DNA of 9,203 bases from a virus (IMGVR_UViG_2548876962_000017); one strand, 5' to 3'. Positions 224-9,203 are shown, counted from the first letter of the stretch. Notes: generated by a model not told the origin, from the letters alone. A program made the numbers and translations.

Positions 224-364
224 TTACTGCTTACACTGTAAGAACGCCGCAAACTCCGCTCCCCAGAAGCTCATCCGTATTTCACACAGCGAACCGTGCA
301 GCATCCAGATGATGAGGATTACCGTCACGCAGAACGTGATGGCTATCAGCGATTTTTGCGACAT
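224..364 (-). CDS. hok: Hok/Gef-family type I toxin (small membrane-depolarising peptide), 46 aa
   Basis: Hand translation of the - strand from ATG 364..362 to TAA 226..224 gives MSQKSLIAITFCVTVILIIWMLHGSLCEIRMSFWGAEFAAFLQCKQ. It has one hydrophobic transmembrane stretch followed by the SLCE(I/L)R and AAF(L/M)xC/Y motifs of Hok/Gef/HokA-type toxins. SD AGGAG lies 8 nt upstream (379..375). Too short for the ORF track. Confidence 0.8.
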   Translation of the reverse strand: MSQKSLIAITFCVTVILIIWMLHGSLCEIRMSFWGAEFAAFLQCKQ

Positions 365-581
365 AGCGCTTGCTCCTTTTTCGGAGAGGCGCTAACCTGT
401 CACTTGCTTAGGGTAGACGGTTAGGGCCTCGGTTAAACAGAGATGTTTTCCGGGGCCTTTCCACATCCGGCTTTCGGGTATTCCCTCCGACCATCAGCCG
501 AAAGGCACCCGCGCGTAATTTACCGTTTTCTGAGTTAATTCTCCAAATAAAATTCCAGAGTCAAAAAACAGATACAGGCGA
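365..581 (-). promoter_or_regulatory. Leader region of the hok-like gene; expected location of the hok promoter, any mok-like frame and the antisense Sok-like RNA; may also contain the prophage end
   Basis: About 215 bp non-coding gap between the ogr stop (582) and the hok start (364), with several stem-loops (e.g. 424-456, 470-504). No overlapping mok-like frame with a canonical start was found; both alternative frames hit stops (TGA, TAA) within 45 nt upstream of the hok ATG. Confidence 0.3.
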
Positions 582-839: not shown

Positions 840-889
840 GACGAAGACCTCCTTTTTCGTGAAGGTGAATCGTCGTGATTTTATTCTGG

Positions 890-2023: not shown

Positions 2024-2186
2024 CCCGCTTTCTCCGTCTGTGTCTTCGTCCTGCAAATCATTCCACACACGCGAAATACACCGCGAGCCGCGCATGTTGT
2101 AGGAGAACGGCGAGAAGGGGCGGCGCGTGAATGTCGGGGTGTTTTTCGGGAGGATAGTGCCACAGAAAAAACACCAGGAGGTGCTC

Positions 2187-3368
2187 ATGAGTGAAACACG
2201 CTTTCACGGTGCACGCGTCAAAGAAAACACCGACCTCGTGACCGCGATTAATGACATTGATTCCAGTGTCATTGGCATCGTGGCCACGGCAGACGATGCA
2301 GACAGCGACGCGTTCCCGTTAAACAAGCCCGTATTGATCACCCGCGTGGCGAATGTGCTGGGTAAGGCAGGCACAACAGGCACGCTGTACAAAACGCTCA
2401 AGGCGATTTCCGACCAGACCAGCCCGAAGGTTATCGTGGTGCGTGTGGCAGAAGCCGGAGAGGAAGGTGAGACACAGGATCAGCTTGTCATCGGTGGCTC
2501 GCAGGCTGACGGCAGCTACACGGGCATGTATGCCCTGCTGGTTGCTGAACAGGACGAGAGCATTGGTTACCGCCCGCGCATTCTGGCGGCTCCCGGTCTG
2601 GATACCGAAGCAGTCACATCCGCCCTGTGCGTCATTGCGGACAAGCTCCGCGCCTTTGTGTACGCCGGATGTAACGGGTGCGACACGATGGCGGAGGCAA
2701 TCACTTACCGTGCGAAGTTCTCCGCGCGTGAGCTGATGCTGCTGTGGCCTGACTTCATTGCCTACAACCCGGTGAGCGGAAATAACGAAACATTTCCGGC
2801 AGCGGCGTATGCGTGCGGGTTGCGTGCGCGGATTGACAGTGAACAGGGCTGGCACAAGTCACTGTCCAACGTGGCGCTGAAAAATGTTCTCGGTATGTCG
2901 CAGCAGGTGTTCTGGTCGTTGCAGGCCGAAGACAGTGATGCGAACAACCTGAACAACAAGGAAATCACCACGATTATTCGCCGTAACGGCTTTCGCTTCT
3001 GGGGGAACCGTACTGCCGAAACCAGCGACTACATCTTTGAGGTGTACACGCGCACAGCGCAGATTCTGGCAGATACCATCGCTGAGGCGCAGTTCGAAAC
3101 CATTGACGAACCGCTGACCCCGGCGAACGTGAAGGACGTGATTAGCGCCATCCGCGCAAAACTCAATGCCCTGGTCACCGCCGGAAAACTCATCGGTGCG
3201 GAGTGCTGGTATGACGTGCTGGACAACGGCACGACGGATTTGCGTCAGGGGCGCGTGCGCATCCGCTACAAGTACACGCCAGTGCCACCGATGGAAGATC
3301 TGACGCTGTATCAGACCTTCACGGATGAGTATTTCGACTCCGCTTTTGCAACGCTGGGAGGTGCGTAA
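2187..3368 (+). CDS. FI: Contractile tail sheath protein (P2 gpFI family)
   Basis: Strong P2 FI-like motifs (FPLNKPVLIT, QYTGMYALLVAE, PRILAAPGLDTEAV, LRAFVYAG, ELMLLWPDF, GLRARIDSEQGWHKSLSNV, IRRNGFRFWGNRT, RYKYTPVPPMEDLTLYQ). Start is ATG 2187 with AGGAGG at 2176-2181, 394 aa. The track start GTG 2127 is an upstream in-frame artefact. Confidence 0.93.
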   Translation: MSETRFHGARVKENTDLVTAINDIDSSVIGIVATADDADSDAFPLNKPVLITRVANVLGKAGTTGTLYKTLKAISDQTSPKVIVVRVAEAGEEGETQDQLVIGGSQADGSYTGMYALLVAEQDESIGYRPRILAAPGLDTEAVTSALCVIADKLRAFVYAGCNGCDTMAEAITYRAKFSARELMLLWPDFIAYNPVSGNNETFPAAAYACGLRARIDSEQGWHKSLSNVALKNVLGMSQQVFWSLQAEDSDANNLNNKEITTIIRRNGFRFWGNRTAETSDYIFEVYTRTAQILADTIAEAQFETIDEPLTPANVKDVISAIRAKLNALVTAGKLIGAECWYDVLDNGTTDLRQGRVRIRYKYTPVPPMEDLTLYQTFTDEYFDSAFATLGGA

Positions 3369-3884
3369 ATGGCTGTACCACGTTACGTTCGCCAGTTCAC
3401 GCTGTTTGTGAACGGCAAAAACAAAATCGGCACGGTGACAGGCGTCACTCTGCCCAAGCTGACCCGAAAAACCGAAGCCTATCGCGGTGGTGGGATGCTG
3501 GGTGCGGTGCATATTGACCTCGGACTGGATGACGGCGCACTGGATGCCTCATTCACCACCGGCGGTGTTGAAAAAGAGTTGCTCCAGGAATACGCCACCG
3601 GCATCAATGAAGTGGCACTGCGCTTTGTGGGTGAGCTGTTCACCGATGGTGAGGAAAGTCAGCTCCTTGAGGTGGAGATGCGCGGACGCATCACGGAAAT
3701 CGACCGTGGCGAAACCAAACAGGGCGACACCACGCAGTACACCTTCGCCGTCAAAAACACCTACTACAAGGAGTCGGTGGATGACAGCGATGTGACAGAA
3801 ATCGACCTGCTGAACTTCATCTACAAAAAAGACGGCCAGAACGTCTTTGGCGACCGCGTGAGTTCGGCGCTCGGTCTGAACTGA
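3369..3884 (+). CDS. FII: Tail tube protein (P2 gpFII family)
   Basis: 171 aa with VTLPKLTRK, YRGGGM, DLGLDDGAL and EVEMRGRITEIDRGETKQG motifs. Its ATG directly follows the FI stop (TAAATG), with GGGAGG upstream. Confidence 0.9.
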   Translation: MAVPRYVRQFTLFVNGKNKIGTVTGVTLPKLTRKTEAYRGGGMLGAVHIDLGLDDGALDASFTTGGVEKELLQEYATGINEVALRFVGELFTDGEESQLLEVEMRGRITEIDRGETKQGDTTQYTFAVKNTYYKESVDDSDVTEIDLLNFIYKKDGQNVFGDRVSSALGLN

Positions 3885-3896
3885 CAGCATTAACAG

Positions 3897-3915
3897 GGCG
3901 GCACATTGTGCCGCC
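3897..3915 (+). promoter_or_regulatory. Intercistronic perfect hairpin between tube and gpE genes (possible attenuator or mRNA-stability element)
   Basis: ggcggcac-att-gtgccgcc: 8-bp perfect GC-rich stem with a 3-nt loop, 13 nt after the FII stop and just before the gpE SD (AGGAG 3918-3922). No U-tract, so not a full terminator. Confidence 0.35.
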
Positions 3916-3930
3916 ACAGGAGAAAGAAAA

Positions 3931-4347
3931 ATGGCAGCAAAGAAAGATGACATCATGAACAGCGAAATCGTCGTAGGTGACACCACCACTGAAAACATCG
4001 ATGTGGCAGAGGAAAACACCGTGGATAACGCTGAAGCCGCAGAGGAAAAAACGGGTGTGAAGTTATCCTGCCCGGTGGTACGTGGCGAACGCGTTATTGA
4101 CTACGTGGAGATTGGCGAGGAAATCCGTCAGGCAGGCTCGTTGCGCGGGCTGTCTCTGATTGAGGTGCTGAACCTCAAAACGGACCCGATGATGACGCTG
4201 CTTTCGCGCGTGACCGCACCACGCCTGAAACTGGCAGAAATTCAGTCACTGTCCACCGGTGATTTCGTGGCGCTGGCGACTATGGCTGCGAATTTTTTTG
4301 CTCCCACGGAGTCTGCGAAACCGCCCGTGGCGGTGATGGAAGCGTAA
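3931..4347 (+). CDS. E: Tail assembly chaperone gpE (zero-frame product)
   Basis: 138-aa ORF between tube and tape measure genes with SD AGGAG 8 nt upstream. It has an acidic N-terminal region, a GSLRGLSL motif, and a T7G slippery run near its 3' end. Confidence 0.75.
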   Translation: MAAKKDDIMNSEIVVGDTTTENIDVAEENTVDNAEAAEEKTGVKLSCPVVRGERVIDYVEIGEEIRQAGSLRGLSLIEVLNLKTDPMMTLLSRVTAPRLKLAEIQSLSTGDFVALATMAANFFAPTESAKPPVAVMEA

Positions 4348-4511
4348 TCACGCTGGCGAAGTTCGACAACGTTGAAGAACTGGTCGCTGATATAGCAGTC
4401 GTGTTTAACTGGTCGCCCGGCGAGATATTCTCAATGCCTCTCGTCGAGGTGATGAGCTGGCGTGAGCGGGCGGCGCAACGTAGCGGAGTCCGCAACAGTG
4501 AAATCCCTTGA
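3931..4511 (+). CDS. E+E': gpE+E' tail assembly chaperone made by programmed -1 frameshift (about 193 aa)
   Basis: After the slip at 4293-4299 the -1 frame is open for 70 codons (CSHGVCETARGGDGSVITLAKFDNVEELVADIAVVFNWSPGEIFSMPLVEVMSWRERAAQRSGVRNSEIP) and stops at 4509-4511, just inside the 5' end of the tape measure gene. This is the geometry expected for P2 E/E+E' and lambda G/GT. Confidence 0.6.
4293..4299 (+). other. Slippery heptamer T_TTT_TTT(G) for -1 ribosomal frameshifting
   Basis: aaTTTTTTTg lies in the E reading frame as AAT TTT TTT GCT (Asn-Phe-Phe-Ala), so an X_XXY_YYZ heptamer is correctly phased for tandem tRNA-Phe slippage. Confidence 0.6.
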
Positions 4512-7500
4512 TATTCGTGTCAGCTTTGGCGCAATTGACCGGCTGACACGCCCGACCGAAAACGCCCGCCGTCAGGTGGGCGCTCTCACTGAATCCCTTC
4601 AGAAGACGCAGAACAACATACAGGCGCTCGACAGACAGTCGAAGGTGTTCGATCGTGCCGCCGGAAATCTCAGTAAATACCGCGAACAGATTGCCCGCGC
4701 GGAGCAGAGGCTCGCCGGGCTGCGAAAGGCAGAGCAGAACGGTAACATCCTCTCCGAAAAGCAGCGTGAAACGCTGGCGGCACTCTCCGCGCGGCTTGAG
4801 CGCCTGAACGAGCTGCGCACGCGCGAGCGCGAAAAACTCCAGGCGGCGGCAGGCGAAATGCGCAAACACGGCATTCTGCTTTCCGGCAGCAGCCGCACCA
4901 TTGAAAGTGCCGTTCGCCGTACACAGCAGTACAACGAGCAGCTCGAGCGCGAACGGCAGGCACTGGCTCGCGTGACGCAGGCACAGAGCCGTTATGAGGC
5001 CGCGAAGGCACAGGCGGAAAAACTGCGCAACACAGGGGCTGTGGCGATGGCGGCGGGTACAGGCGGCCTGTATGCGGCGCAGCGTATGATGGCTCCGGCG
5101 ATGGAGTCCGAACAGCACGGTGCGGTCATCGCAGCCGGTTCGGGGGAAGGCGCACAGGATGGCGCACGTTACACCCACATCATCCGTAACATACAGGCTG
5201 ACGGTCTCGCTGATTTTGCCGGTGCTGCGGAGGCTGTGAGTGCGGTACGCAGTACGCTCGGTGCACTGGGCGACACCGGCGACCGGGAACTGGAGCGCAT
5301 CAGCCGTCGTGCGCTGGATATGCGGACCGTCTTTGGTGTTGATGTGCCGCAGAGCATTCAGGCCGCTGCCATCATGATGAAGAACGGGCTGGCTGCCAGC
5401 AGTGACGAGGCTACTAACCTGATGACGGCAGGCATGCAGCGCATGTCCGCTGAAATGCGCGATGAACTGCCGGAAATTCTGCATGAGTATTCCACCCACT
5501 TCCGCAACATGGGCTTCACCGGCAGCGAGACAATGAGTCTGCTGGTTGAGATGGCAAAGCAGGGCAAGTTTGCGCTGGACAAAACCGGCGATGCCGTGAA
5601 GGAGTTCAGTATCCGTGGTTCGGATATGTCGAAATCCAGTGTCTCAGCGTATGAGACACTCGGCCTGAATGCCGAACGGGTGTCTGCTGCCATTGCACAG
5701 GGGGGCAGCACCGCACGTCAGGCGATGCAGGTGACCGCCCGTGCACTGCTGGCCATCCGTGACCCGGCAGAGCGGGCGAACACGGCTATTGCGCTGTTCG
5801 GCACACCCGTTGAAGACCTCTCCGTTGACCAGATCCCGCAGTTCTTAAAGGCGCTGGCCGATGTCCGTGACAACCTGGGTGATGTCAGCGGCGTGGCAGA
5901 CCGCATGGGGCAGACGCTGCGCGGTAATCTTTCCGGCGATGTTCAGGCGCTGAGTGGTGCGTTCTCAGGGCTACGCACGGACATCTTCGGTACTGTGACC
6001 GAGGATTTGCGCGGGCTGGTTCAGACGGTGAGCGCGTGGGTGACCCGGATGCGCGAATGGGTCGGAGAGCATCATGCGCTGGTCAGAGTCCTGGTGCTGA
6101 CCGGCGGGAGTGTTCTGGCGCTGTCTTCCACGTTCGGTGCGCTGTCACTGACGCTAGGGCTGATTGCGGGACCACTGGCAAAACTGCAACTGGGACTGGG
6201 GCTGCTGACGGGGGGCGGTGGCATTGGTGGTGCTGTCCGGCTTGTGTCTGCGATGGCACTGCGCCTGACGGGGCTGCCTGCGCTGTGGGGGCTGGTCACG
6301 GGGGCGGTGTCGGTACTGGGGGGCGCACTGGGGGCGCTGTTCAGTCCGGTCGGGCTGATTGTTGCCGCCCTGGTGGGCGGCGCGGTTCTGGTGTGGAAAT
6401 ACTGGGATCAGATCAGCGCGTTTTTTTCCGGCTTTTTTGCCGGAGTGTGGGAGGCGCTGCAACCGCTGCGGGAAGCCTTTGCGTCGCTGGCTCCGGTGTT
6501 CGGGCTGATTGGCGATGGCATCAAAGCCGTGTGGGAGTGGTTCACCCGCCTGCTTGAACCTGCAAACGCCTCAAAAGAGACACTCGACAAATGCACCAGC
6601 GCCGGGGAGTCGTTCGGGAAAACGCTGGGGTGGGTCATTCAGAACATTGTGCTGGGGCCGCTGACGATGCTCCTTGATGGCCTCGGCACAGTGCTGAAGT
6701 GGCTGGGTGTTATCCCGGATGGCATCAGGGAAGCGCAGAAGGAGACGCAAAAACTCCAGGAGAGTGCCGCAAAACAGGCCACACAAAAAGCGCCGGTTGC
6801 GTGGGAGTGGGATCCTGCACAGAAAAAAATGGTGCAGAAAACATGGTCGTGGTCATCAGATGCAGCGGAAAACAACGGTGACAATAAACCCGCAATACCT
6901 GCCCCTGCTGTTTCCGGAGAGGTGAAGGGAACGGCGGACAATCCGGTCGGCAAACCCGGTAGTAAATCCCCGCTGGATGAGGCGTGGTTCCGGCAGGGGA
7001 TACAGAAAACCGCCAGCAACACCGGCGGGCTGCTTGAGGAAACTAAAAAACGTACTGGTCCCGGCGATATTGTTTTCAAAAATCTGCCCGGACCCGAAAT
7101 CATTCACGGCGAGTGGAAAGCACCGCAGGTTATCCGGACAGTGCAGGCGGTATCGGCGGGCGGAGGACTGACGGATGCGCTGACAACGCTCTGGCAGAAA
7201 CTCACCGGAAGACAGACTATTTCGCCCGTTCCGGCAGTGAATGTGCCAGCACCGGTGGTGAATGTGGCGCGTCAGGTGTCCGCACTGCCGCAGCCGCGTA
7301 ACGTGACGGAAGGTATGACTGGTGCGGTGATGGCTTCCGCTCCCGTCGCGGAGGCTATCCGGCTCCCGTTGCGACCGGAAGCGGCCAGAAGGGAAGCTAC
7401 GCCACAACCGCAGGCTGCTGCGTTTTCCGGTGAGATACATGTACATCTGCACAACGTCAACACACAGAATCCGCGCGAACTGGCAAAACTGGTTGGTGAG

Positions 7501-7566
7501 GCCGTCCGCGAAGAGATGCGCAGACAGGCGCGTACAGGCATGAACAGCTTCCGTGACAGGGACTAA
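4498..7566 (+). CDS. T: Tail tape measure protein (P2 gpT family)
   Basis: Over 1000-aa ORF with a coiled-coil-rich N-terminal third, a central Gly/Ala/Leu-rich hydrophobic segment (about 6060-6420) and a Pro/Ala-rich C-terminal region. The frame opens after TGA 4453-4455 and the first in-frame ATG is far downstream, so the start is GTG 4498 (GGAG 4485-4488, 9-nt spacer; 1022 aa) or GTG 4462 (1034 aa). It overlaps the E' end. Confidence 0.9.
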   Translation: MKSLDIRVSFGAIDRLTRPTENARRQVGALTESLQKTQNNIQALDRQSKVFDRAAGNLSKYREQIARAEQRLAGLRKAEQNGNILSEKQRETLAALSARLERLNELRTREREKLQAAAGEMRKHGILLSGSSRTIESAVRRTQQYNEQLERERQALARVTQAQSRYEAAKAQAEKLRNTGAVAMAAGTGGLYAAQRMMAPAMESEQHGAVIAAGSGEGAQDGARYTHIIRNIQADGLADFAGAAEAVSAVRSTLGALGDTGDRELERISRRALDMRTVFGVDVPQSIQAAAIMMKNGLAASSDEATNLMTAGMQRMSAEMRDELPEILHEYSTHFRNMGFTGSETMSLLVEMAKQGKFALDKTGDAVKEFSIRGSDMSKSSVSAYETLGLNAERVSAAIAQGGSTARQAMQVTARALLAIRDPAERANTAIALFGTPVEDLSVDQIPQFLKALADVRDNLGDVSGVADRMGQTLRGNLSGDVQALSGAFSGLRTDIFGTVTEDLRGLVQTVSAWVTRMREWVGEHHALVRVLVLTGGSVLALSSTFGALSLTLGLIAGPLAKLQLGLGLLTGGGGIGGAVRLVSAMALRLTGLPALWGLVTGAVSVLGGALGALFSPVGLIVAALVGGAVLVWKYWDQISAFFSGFFAGVWEALQPLREAFASLAPVFGLIGDGIKAVWEWFTRLLEPANASKETLDKCTSAGESFGKTLGWVIQNIVLGPLTMLLDGLGTVLKWLGVIPDGIREAQKETQKLQESAAKQATQKAPVAWEWDPAQKKMVQKTWSWSSDAAENNGDNKPAIPAPAVSGEVKGTADNPVGKPGSKSPLDEAWFRQGIQKTASNTGGLLEETKKRTGPGDIVFKNLPGPEIIHGEWKAPQVIRTVQAVSAGGGLTDALTTLWQKLTGRQTISPVPAVNVPAPVVNVARQVSALPQPRNVTEGMTGAVMASAPVAEAIRLPLRPEAARREATPQPQAAAFSGEIHVHLHNVNTQNPRELAKLVGEAVREEMRRQARTGMNSFRDRD

Positions 7567-7579
7567 AGGAGACACAATT

Positions 7580-8047
7580 ATGATGATGATTTTTGGCATG
7601 TTTGTGTTTGAACTGAAAACGCTGCCGCATCAGCAGATCCAGCAGAGCAAAACATGGCGACATGTGAGAAATGAGCGAATCAACCGTTCTGCGGCCTGGC
7701 AGTATATCGGTGCGGGTGATGACCAGATCACGTTGTCCGGCATGTTGTATCCCGAAATTACCGGCGGGGAGGTGTCGCTGACACTGCTGAACACCCAGGC
7801 CTACACCGGATGCCCCTGGCCGCTGATTGATGGCACCGGGCAGATTTACGGGATGTACGTGATTACGGGATTACAGACCACCCGTTCCGAGCTGGATCGT
7901 TACGGAAAGGCAAAAAAGATTGAGTTCTCCATCAGCTTTCAGCGGTGTGATGAGGATATGAGGGAGAAACTTCAGTCTGCTTCTGCAGGCGAACTGCTCA
8001 ACAGTATGAAGAGCAGAGCTGCATCCGTTCTCAATTCAGTTTTGTGA
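7580..8047 (+). CDS. U: Tail protein gpU (P2 gpU family, tail terminator-like)
   Basis: MMMIFGMFVFELKTLP...WRHVRNERINRSAA...LYPEITGG...WPLIDGTGQIYGMYVI...KIEFSISF matches the P2 gpU pattern. Start is ATG 7580 with AGGAG at 7569-7573, 155 aa. The track start GTG 7553 lies inside the T 3' end. Confidence 0.9.
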   Translation: MMMIFGMFVFELKTLPHQQIQQSKTWRHVRNERINRSAAWQYIGAGDDQITLSGMLYPEITGGEVSLTLLNTQAYTGCPWPLIDGTGQIYGMYVITGLQTTRSELDRYGKAKKIEFSISFQRCDEDMREKLQSASAGELLNSMKSRAASVLNSVL

Positions 8048-8051
8048 CCCG

Positions 8052-8085
8052 AAAAAAAGCCCGCCGCCCAGTCCTGACGGCGGGC
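8052..8085 (-). terminator. Intrinsic terminator between convergent gpU and tfa genes (strongest for the - strand transcript)
   Basis: Perfect 8-bp GC stem gcccgccg (8059-8066) / cggcgggc (8078-8085) with an 11-nt loop. The A7 run at 8052-8058 is a U7 tract immediately 3' of the hairpin on the - strand; on the + strand no U-tract follows. Confidence 0.6.
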
Positions 8086-8127
8086 ATACTGAACACCCAG
8101 CCAGTGTGTCTGTAAAGTGAGATTATG

Positions 8128-8772
8128 TCACTGAATCGTACTTGTGAAGGTTTGCGTATCGGTGTTTGTATTTTCGCCGGGAATGTCGGGCCAGATAATC
8201 GCCTCAACGTCCGCTTTGTTGGCGATGCTTGTGAAATCCAGTGCGTTCAGTGCGTCAACGTAGTCAAGCCACGCATCCAGTGATGCCTGCTCGTTTTCCG
8301 TCAGTGAACGGCCAAGCAGCAATTTTGTCTGGCTGATAACAAGCTGCTGGCGTGCGCTGTTGAGTAGCGAATCACGCCTGGTTTCCGCCGCTGCGACTGC
8401 GGCACTGCGCTGTGCTTCCGTATCCGTCACCCATGCTGTGCCGTTCCACTTCTGAAACTCCCCTTCCGGGGATAACCAGGTGACATTTTCCGGTAATGGG
8501 CCAGGTTCAGAAATAAATAACGCATCTCCTGTGCCCACGTCGTAAACTGTTTTACCCCGATGGTCTTCAACGAGATGCCACGATGCCTCATCACTGTTGA
8601 AAACAGCCACGAAACCAGCCGGAATATCTGGCGGTGCAATATCGGTACTGTTTGCTGGCAGACCTGTATGAGGCGGAATATATGCATCACCTTCACCAAT
8701 AAATTCATTGGTTCCCGGCAGCAGATTATAAATTTTTATGGTCTGTGGTTGTTCACTCATTCTGAATACCAT
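8128..8772 (-). CDS. tfa: Tail fiber assembly protein (Tfa family, TfaR/TfaE-like N-terminal domain)
   Basis: N-terminus [54 protein letters not shown]... closely resembles lambdoid/e14/Rac Tfa proteins. Its start ATG overlaps the tail fiber stop (TAATG) with GAGG 8 nt upstream. 214 aa. Confidence 0.9.
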
Positions 8773-9203
8773 TATGCAAGCCTCACAATATAGTTAAATG
8801 CGATGTTTTTTACGGTGTTTTCCGCGTTGCCATAAGCAGCAATGGCAATGGTGTGTGTGTGCGAACCAATAGCGAGCGTATGTGTATGCGCACCTATTGC
8901 TACTGTGTGAGTATGAGCTCCTGCGCTTAATACGCGATTACTTGCTGTCTTGCTTGTGTTAGTTGCATGCATTCCACCACCGGTACCGGGAGTTTCTGCG
9001 TACGCTGAAGTATTGTTGTAAGCAAAGTTGTGTGTATGTGCTCCGGTGTTATTTGTGGATTTAGTTCCGTAATCAAACGACGATGTGGTTTTCGTTCCCA
9101 AATCCGTACTGGATGCGCTGGCGCTGTGGGTATGCGATTTAATGCCATCCTGTTCCTGAGACAATACGGCACGACCACTGGCGGGCTTGCCCTTAATCGT
9201 CCA
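8772..9203 (-). CDS. Tail fiber protein, C-terminal (receptor-binding) portion; 5' end lies beyond the window
   Basis: The frame is open from the window edge (9203) to TAA at 8774..8772. The track's M at 9164 is an internal TTG. The C-terminus ...[49 protein letters not shown] is the characteristic end of Stf/gpH-type side tail fibers. Confidence 0.85.
8840..8920 (-). repeat. Three imperfect tandem 27-bp repeats encoding (G/S)(A/S)HTHT(V/L/I)AI nonapeptides
   Basis: + strand units caatggcaatggtgtgtgtgtgcgaac / caatagcgagcgtatgtgtatgcgcac / ctattgctactgtgtgagtatgagctc, within the tail fiber C-terminal coding region. Confidence 0.6.

Follow-up and report, generated by a model that had tools for sequence, protein, structure and literature searches.

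How a P2-like tail operon comes to lie backwards between its neighbours, and how the late gene D is then expressed, are the questions raised by a 9,203-nucleotide stretch of viral DNA (IMGVR_UViG_2548876962_000017; the whole stretch analysed is referred to here as the window). In P2 the genes FI-FII-E-E'-T-U-D and ogr lie on one strand, with D as the last gene of the F operon, whereas in the window the FI-U block is reversed and D is transcriptionally separate. A preliminary description of the window attributed this to the inversion in place of a block of about 6 kb, implied that the arrangement was rare, and argued that gpD would need a promoter of its own. The analysis described here shows that the inverted layout is a normal, inherited and fixed trait of a large branch of P2-like phages, and is neither rare nor recent. 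It also points to a single activator site in the D/FI spacer as the probable source of transcription in both directions.

Orientation and distribution of the tail operon

Genes were identified from a listing of open reading frames and by Pfam and PHROGs profile searches of the window. All of the gene calls were supported by these searches (Table 1), with the sheath, tube, tape measure, gpU and gpD all scoring above the Pfam gathering score, and they identify the window as a contractile tail and late-control module of P2-like (Peduoviridae) type. The ogr and gpD genes (582-2023) lie on the minus strand, FI-FII-E/E'-T-U (2187-8047) on the plus strand, and tfa together with the 3' end of the tail fibre gene H (8128-9203) again on the minus strand, so that the opposed orientation first reported for the FI-U block was borne out. 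The two junctions also proved to have exactly the extents originally assigned to them: a divergent D/FI spacer of 163 bp at 2024-2186 (D ATG at 2023, FI ATG at 2187) and a convergent U/tfa spacer of 80 bp at 8048-8127 (U stop at 8045-8047, tfa stop at 8128-8130). Both GC and AT skew change sign at the D/FI junction, as expected because the coding strand switches there. The calls on which the opposed orientation would stand or fall, gpD and Tfa, both held in the profile searches (E=2e-149 and, for Caudo_TAP, E=8e-27). The window shares with the P2 F operon its gene set and internal order, a T-run for an E/E' -1 frameshift and the position of ogr after D. P2, however, carries Z/fun between G and FI, whereas the window has no cargo there.

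The region ogr-D-FI-FII was recovered by megablast as a single contiguous match in Escherichia phages P88, P884B11 and PhiR44_2 and in Citrobacter phage Shae_phiSM, and ten complete Escherichia coli chromosomes covered 81-86% of the window at 91-97% identity with the D/FI junction contiguous. The annotation of P88 places V-W-J-I-H-tfa on one strand, U-T-E-FII-FI on the other, and D and hok back on the first; module order and orientation in P88, Xuanwuvirus and PhiSM are identical to those of the window, with D-ogr followed by hok/gef. The best E. coli matches reach 95-97% identity. The nearest relatives of the window are prophages of the type found in E. coli AR_0085 (95.8% identity), where the prophage adjoins flk, is laid out in the same way and has complete sets of head, lysis and baseplate genes. 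P88, P884B11, 520873 and Citrobacter PhiSM are isolated phages with this layout (genus Xuanwuvirus of the International Committee on Taxonomy of Viruses, ICTV), and the deposited record of Xuanwuvirus 520873 shows the same inversion. The inverted layout is viable, since P88 can be induced and PhiSM shows spontaneous activity (PMC5285337, PMC6456863).

The wider distribution was obtained from a scan of one genome per bacterial species, in which an alignment of four gpD proteins served as the query; 80 loci were returned, and on these V, W, J, I, tfa, FI, FII, E, T, U, D and ogr were mapped. The inverted layout was present in every one of the 55 loci whose gpD is 58-72% identical to that of the window, and the collinear P2 order in all 25 loci, again enterobacterial, with gpD at 47-53% identity. 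The 55 inverted loci span about 25 genera of Enterobacterales, among them Kluyvera, Edwardsiella, Serratia, Citrobacter, Salmonella, Erwinia, Pantoea, Enterobacter, Klebsiella, Photorhabdus, Xenorhabdus, Providencia, Morganella, Yersinia and Hafnia. Each of three neighbour-joining trees, built for D, FI and U, showed the inverted group and the collinear group as reciprocally monophyletic, and the window was placed in the monophyletic inverted group for all three genes. The implied rarity of the inversion was thus not upheld, the layout being present in 55/55 related loci and in ICTV-classified, inducible phages. Misassembly as the source of the layout is excluded by the contiguity of the D/FI junction in phages and in the ten finished chromosomes, and a strain-specific event by the presence of both junction topologies in 55/55 related loci of different species; comparison with E. 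coli prophages likewise showed no strain-specific layout, as the ten chromosomes share the D/FI junction.

Within the inverted group the window likely belongs to a sister lineage of P88, inside the P88-like (Xuanwuvirus-related) branch. The gpD of P88 is 71% identical to that of the window and the DNA about 80% identical over D-FI-FII, but megablast similarity to P88 covers just 20% of the window (at 81%), a figure for which only the 9.2 kb of the window are available for comparison.

The P88-type layout is already plain in public annotation: phages that carry it have been deposited, classified and induced, and finished E. coli genomes contain the prophage in annotated form. The literature searched, which included the papers on P88, on P2-like diversity (2026) and on the C. 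rodentium prophages, yielded no explicit account of the inversion or of a promoter for gpD (PD). The inversion is real and was correctly interpreted, but it is ordinary and does not represent a new kind of system. For annotation, this means that P2-like prophages have two stable tail-module layouts, and that the P88-type one should not be flagged as a misassembly or as a fresh rearrangement.

The D/FI spacer and the expression of gpD

Between tfa and gpD the minus strand holds only the antisense of FI-U, and a strong minus-strand terminator follows tfa; for these reasons gpD needs a promoter inside 2024-2186. The D/FI spacer is about 140-180 bp long in all loci of the inverted clade. When the spacers of 55 distinct inverted-clade loci were aligned and then re-anchored on the activator box, three elements stood out from an otherwise diverged background, namely the box itself, a -10 element on the FI side and a -10 element on the D side. 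Late promoters of P2 have been described as Ogr-dependent TGT-N12-ACA sites (PMC3931495). The box of the window, TGTAGGAGAACGGCGAGA, fits five of the six consensus bases (it is an AGA variant) and aligns with GTTGT-N12-ACAAC or AGA boxes in the 55 related loci, in many of which it is perfect. Each spacer has one box, and no second Ogr box for gpD was present in the D/FI spacer of the window or of its relatives. On the FI side, an xAxxAT hexamer at offset 43 from the box centre was found in 53/55 inverted and 17/21 collinear loci. The mirrored hexamer on the D side, at offsets 41-45, was found in 45 of the 55 inverted loci compared with 4 of 21 collinear ones (Fisher p=6e-7, a value that ignores the shared ancestry of the loci), and the remaining ten inverted loci have TGnGATCCT at this position. 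The predicted starts of the promoter of the FI-U operon (PF) and of PD are about 112 bp apart, with predicted leaders of about 25 and 27 nt that end in good ribosome-binding sites. A generic sigma-70 scan reported no promoter in the D/FI spacer; this is uninformative, because activator-dependent late promoters are expected to have poor -35 elements.

The same arrangement is known from P2. In the P2 GenBank record a single feature at 3057-3087 is labelled 'activator binding site; pO, pP promoters'; the two annotated start sites, 3016 (-) and 3127 (+), are 111 bp apart, and both -10 elements lie 43 bp from the box centre. The offset of the PF -10 in the window, 43, is that of P2 pO, and the -10 of P2 pF is at offset 44, so that the window and P2 share a PF promoter type with the box at about -55 and the -10 at offset 43-44. 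The pP/pO geometry as a whole, with one dyad box, -10 elements 43-44 bp to either side and starts 111-112 bp apart, is also that of the window. The P2 pair, however, drives packaging and head genes from starts annotated as mapped, whereas the pair in the window would drive FI-U and D-ogr from predicted ones. In Smp131, PP' and PO' have been described on the same 18-bp element (PMC3931495). The P88 D/FI spacer contains one Ogr box and both -10 elements, as in the window, and in the nearly identical AR_0085 prophage the box of the O/P spacer is perfect and is flanked by two hexamers, each at offset 44, which indicates that this type of phage already uses the shared-box design once.

With this geometry, gpD most likely has its own Ogr-dependent promoter, and the early proposal that it would need one of its own is supported by the conserved mirrored -10, which is specific to the inverted clade. 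The inversion would have placed the PF activator box beside the 5' end of gpD; the box, being a dyad, could work in both directions, and a second -10 lies at the mirror-image distance on the D side in the inverted clade. With Ogr bound at the single box (2098-2115), PF would be activated rightwards, into FI-U, and PD leftwards, into D with read-through into ogr. We think it somewhat more probable than otherwise that the dyad of the PF box is what made a 6-kb inversion tolerable, in that a -10 at the mirror position would have yielded an undescribed bidirectional PD/PF promoter for gpD and ogr. This predicted promoter pair on one Ogr box, which repeats the pP/pO design of P2, would be the sole mildly new element of the system. 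If it is correct, gpD and late ogr expression are uncoupled from the sheath operon; if confirmed, it would mean that a symmetric activator site lets the inversion of an operon create a new co-regulated promoter, and the shared Ogr box is a prediction that can be tested directly in P88 or PhiSM.

It is also conceivable, though unlikely, that transcription of gpD and ogr does not depend on Ogr but starts at an extended -10 sigma-70 promoter, or at one controlled by some other regulator, and that the mirrored spacing is incidental. TGn precedes the D-side hexamer in the window as well as in 25 of the 45 loci with a clear hexamer, the conserved CGCGCG block just upstream of the hexamer is a possible site for another factor, and in P2 the annotation likewise gives ogr a promoter of its own, between D and ogr. 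However, even though the spacers have diverged strongly, the distance of the D-side -10 from the dyad centre stays fixed at 43-44 bp, the register seen at P2 pP, for which the P2 record gives a start site. An independent promoter would lack a reason to keep this register, and gpD is a structural late protein.

Two further features of this region were observed. The block just mentioned, CACG-CGCGCG, is among the best-conserved elements of the spacer in the inverted loci (L004-L058 in our numbering), is degenerate in the window (~2066-2077, CACACACGCGAA) and is absent from the collinear phages; it could be a spacer element of PD or the site of another factor. Where gpD ends and ogr begins, 50 bp apart, a TAAAAT hexamer in the gap at 878-883 (-) is a candidate for a promoter belonging to ogr itself.

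Origin of the inversion

Since P2 and the Pseudomonas outgroup phiCTX have the collinear order, the inverted state is derived, and the reciprocal monophyly of the two groups in D, FI and U points to one old inversion. A single old inversion in place of the promoter-FI-FII-E-T-U block is accordingly supported as the most economical explanation, and the original proposal that a block of about 6 kb had turned round in place gains from the inverted clade being monophyletic for FI, U and D alike. One ancestral event would have reversed the unit made up of the PF promoter and FI-FII-E/E'-T-U, to give a genome in which V-W-J-I-H-tfa runs towards an opposed U-T-E-FII-FI block and D-ogr follows in the first direction again, an order that would have been fixed since. 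The gene products nearest to the two junctions are only partly alignable with those of P2: gpD, 48% identical, aligns only from residue 20 on, and gpU, 47% identical across residues 1-127, has 28 final residues that could not be aligned. As scars of remodelling at the breakpoints these termini are a weak and merely suggestive sign, because such termini vary anyway.

Overall, a P88-like lineage with one ancestral inversion and a shared Ogr box driving both PF and PD is an interpretation that we hold with considerable confidence. Several points weigh against it. In addition to the discount that shared ancestry imposes on the Fisher value, the box of the window is imperfect (AGA for ACA), a variant that some half of the clade also has; the D-side -10, at offset 44 and not 43, has an extended -10 TG and so could fire without Ogr; the PF and PD start sites, and the dependence of PD on Ogr, are read from the sequence alone; the derived polarity relies on few outgroups; and no match elsewhere was obtained for the exact U/tfa junction sequence.

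A replacement, in which a foreign FI-U module recombined into the genome backwards, would give the same gene order and appears improbable. P2-like phages are mosaic, rearranged tail modules have been reported earlier among them, for example in Smp131 (PMC3931495), and the junction-proximal first 19 residues of gpD and last 28 of gpU fail to align with P2. In contrast, FI and U, inside the block, and D, outside it, give the same division into inverted and collinear groups with similar identities between them (0.50 for FI, 0.47 for U and 0.51 for D), as expected of one lineage that has evolved as a unit, and a single inversion with two breaks accounts for the gene order without extra steps.

Segments flipped by Gin/Cin/Hin-type invertases turn between short crossover repeats, and both of their states coexist. 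The Mu G, P1 C and carotovoricin Er segments resemble the window in that a segment of a contractile-tail cluster lies in the opposite orientation, and relatives of the window have an invertase nearby; those systems, however, flip cassettes of 3-4 kb that hold a fibre C-terminus and tfa, whereas the clade of the window has a 6-kb structural operon in one fixed state. That FI-U is an actively invertible segment of this kind, flipped by a site-specific DNA invertase, is extremely improbable. P88 and 520873 do encode a DNA invertase between U and the tail-fibre cassettes, and a 16-nt imperfect inverted repeat touches both spacers of the window, but the P88 invertase adjoins two opposed fibre/tfa cassettes of the classic kind, the substrate expected for it, and a single orientation was seen in 57/57 related loci. 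In the window itself neither the open reading frame listing nor Pfam revealed an invertase, and a repeat search gave no recombination sites at the FI-U block, the one inverted match at its edges being the 16-nt repeat, an A/T-run match misplaced relative to the block edge.

The repeat, CGGGGTGTTTTTCGGG and CCCGAAAAAAAGCCCG (2135-2150 and 8048-8063; 16 nt, 88%), was considered as a trace of recombination and rejected as a chance match. It pairs a T-run with an A-run, and the inverted block itself contains its left arm, which falls between the Ogr box and the -10. It was not visible in the printed spacer and post-U sequences of the nearest relative, AR_0085 (locus L002), on which no repeat search was made.

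Finally, a recent inversion confined to this one genome, or an error in its assembly, can be given almost no weight: although none of 5,426 complete E. coli genomes has a match spanning the U/tfa junction sequence (~8004-8173), isolated phages as well as finished chromosomes have a contiguous D/FI junction, the topology of both junctions recurs in all 55 loci, and the unmatched stretch coincides with an ordinary swap of the tail-fibre cassette (from 8413 there is ~90% identity to lambdoid stf/tfa).

The U/tfa junction, accessory genes and other features

At the other end of the block, U is convergent with tfa and H, which is the rule in the inverted clade. The match of the nearest prophages to the window ends at about 8003, in the last codons of U; no match spanned the exact junction (~8004-8173) in the complete E. 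coli genomes, and 8413-9203 is ~90% identical to side-tail-fibre/tfa genes of lambdoid and Stx phages. To judge from these matches, the stretch lacking a counterpart is an ordinary exchange of the tail-fibre cassette, and the host-range cassette is a mosaic. The 80-bp spacer holds one hairpin (Table 1), which reads as a proper intrinsic terminator for the H-tfa (V-type) operon and would be at best a weak one for FI-U, because an A-run adjoins it on the left but a T-run is lacking on the right; assorted hairpins follow U in the relatives. The claim that there is no room for cargo at this junction was a fair one. It applies to the window and to most relatives, in which I to U measures 1.6-3.8 kb and comprises H and tfa, but not to P88 and 520873, which carry a DNA invertase and a second fibre/tfa cassette between U and the fibre genes where the window has its 80-bp spacer and hairpin.

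The accessory cargo of the window, hok/sok, is located downstream of ogr, as it is in P88 and AR_0085. A sok-like antisense RNA region was detected at 351-510 (-), just upstream of the hok reading frame (Rfam sok, 43 bits, E=3e-7; gathering score 59), and hok together with this region is predicted to form type I toxin-antitoxin cargo. The other results of the Rfam and tRNA scans of the window included nothing bearing on the inversion. The distance from D to ogr is ~1.4-1.9 kb in three relatives (L005, L042 and L050), compared with the usual ~50-100 bp, and genes are inserted around D, ogr and hok in some relatives (also E. coli H41-H46 and H49), one of them, in APEC E12053, encoding a TIR-domain protein. 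The lineage thus seems to have its accessory or defence hotspot at the ogr end and not at the Z/fun position.

Table 1. Genes and predicted regulatory elements of the window (offsets are in bp from the centre of the activator box)
Feature	Position	Strand	Support and remarks
hok/gef-family toxin	224-364	-	Pfam HOK_GEF; PHROG 251 'MokW-like host killing', E=2e-23
ogr-type late activator, 85 aa	582-839	-	Pfam Ogr_Delta zinc finger, E=8.6e-12; GTG start, AGGAGG 5' of the start
gpD (tail/baseplate hub, 'late control D'), 377 aa	890-2023	-	Pfam Phage_GPD; PHROG 52, E=2e-149
Divergent D/FI spacer, 163 bp, proposed bidirectional late promoter region	2024-2186		Spacer alignment
Proposed PD -10 element AATGAT, preceded by TGg (extended -10); offset 44; predicted start ~2050	2057-2062	-	Alignment
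Ogr-type activator box, TGT-N12-AGA; centre between 2106 and 2107	2098-2115		Consensus match, alignment
PF -10 element GAGGAT (xAxxAT); offset 43; predicted start ~2162	2150-2155	+	Alignment
FI, tail sheath	2187-3368	+	Pfam Phage_sheath_1, Gp18_domIII_N, sheath_1C; PHROG 23
FII, tail tube	3369-3884	+	Pfam Phage_tube, E=1e-45
E, tail chaperone	3931-4347	+	PHROG 103
E+E', by predicted -1 frameshift at the T7 run 4293-4299	3931-4511	+	Phage_P2_GpE domain in the fused product
T, tape measure (start 4462, or 4498 according to the annotation of a relative)	4462-7566	+	Pfam PhageMin_Tail; PHROG 28
gpU	7580-8047	+	Pfam Phage_P2_GpU, E=4.6e-40
GC-rich hairpin, with T-run on the minus strand only	8059-8085	-	Top terminator-like site in a scan of the window; TTTTTTT after the hairpin
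Tail fibre assembly protein (G/Tfa)	8128-8772	-	Pfam Caudo_TAP, E=8e-27; PHROG 105
Tail fibre H, C-terminal part, running off the window	8772-9203	-	Pfam Phage_fiber; PHROG 295, E=3e-72

The remaining observations concern individual genes and the left end of the window. The ogr gene starts 50 bp downstream of the gpD stop and is equal in length to the annotated ogr of E. coli AR_0085. The -1 frame over E is open from 4263 to 4511 and includes the slippery T-run, which is in the E frame, and the Phage_P2_GpE domain falls at residues 152-187 of the fused product (Pfam, E=7e-14); the gene is therefore predicted to give the chaperone pair E and E+E' by -1 frameshifting. Near the left end a strong symmetric hairpin at 100-147, with an A-run before it and a T-run after it (AAAGAAAACCCGCAG...CTGCGGGTTTTCTT), looks like a bidirectional terminator close to the end of the prophage. 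Positions 1-82 have no match in the AR_0085 locus, which indicates that the integration site or end sequence differs. The tape measure gene is 4008 bp long in AR_0085 compared with 3105 bp in the window, and has, at L002 22132-23183, about 5.5 extra tandem copies of a 180-bp (60-aa) unit, of which window positions 7231-7281 represent part of one; the longer gene predicts a longer tail for the AR_0085 prophage. In Escherichia phage 520873 (L086 6004-7784) the sheath gene is broken by IS100 (IS21 family) and gpD and T are fragmented, so that the deposited record looks like that of a decayed prophage.

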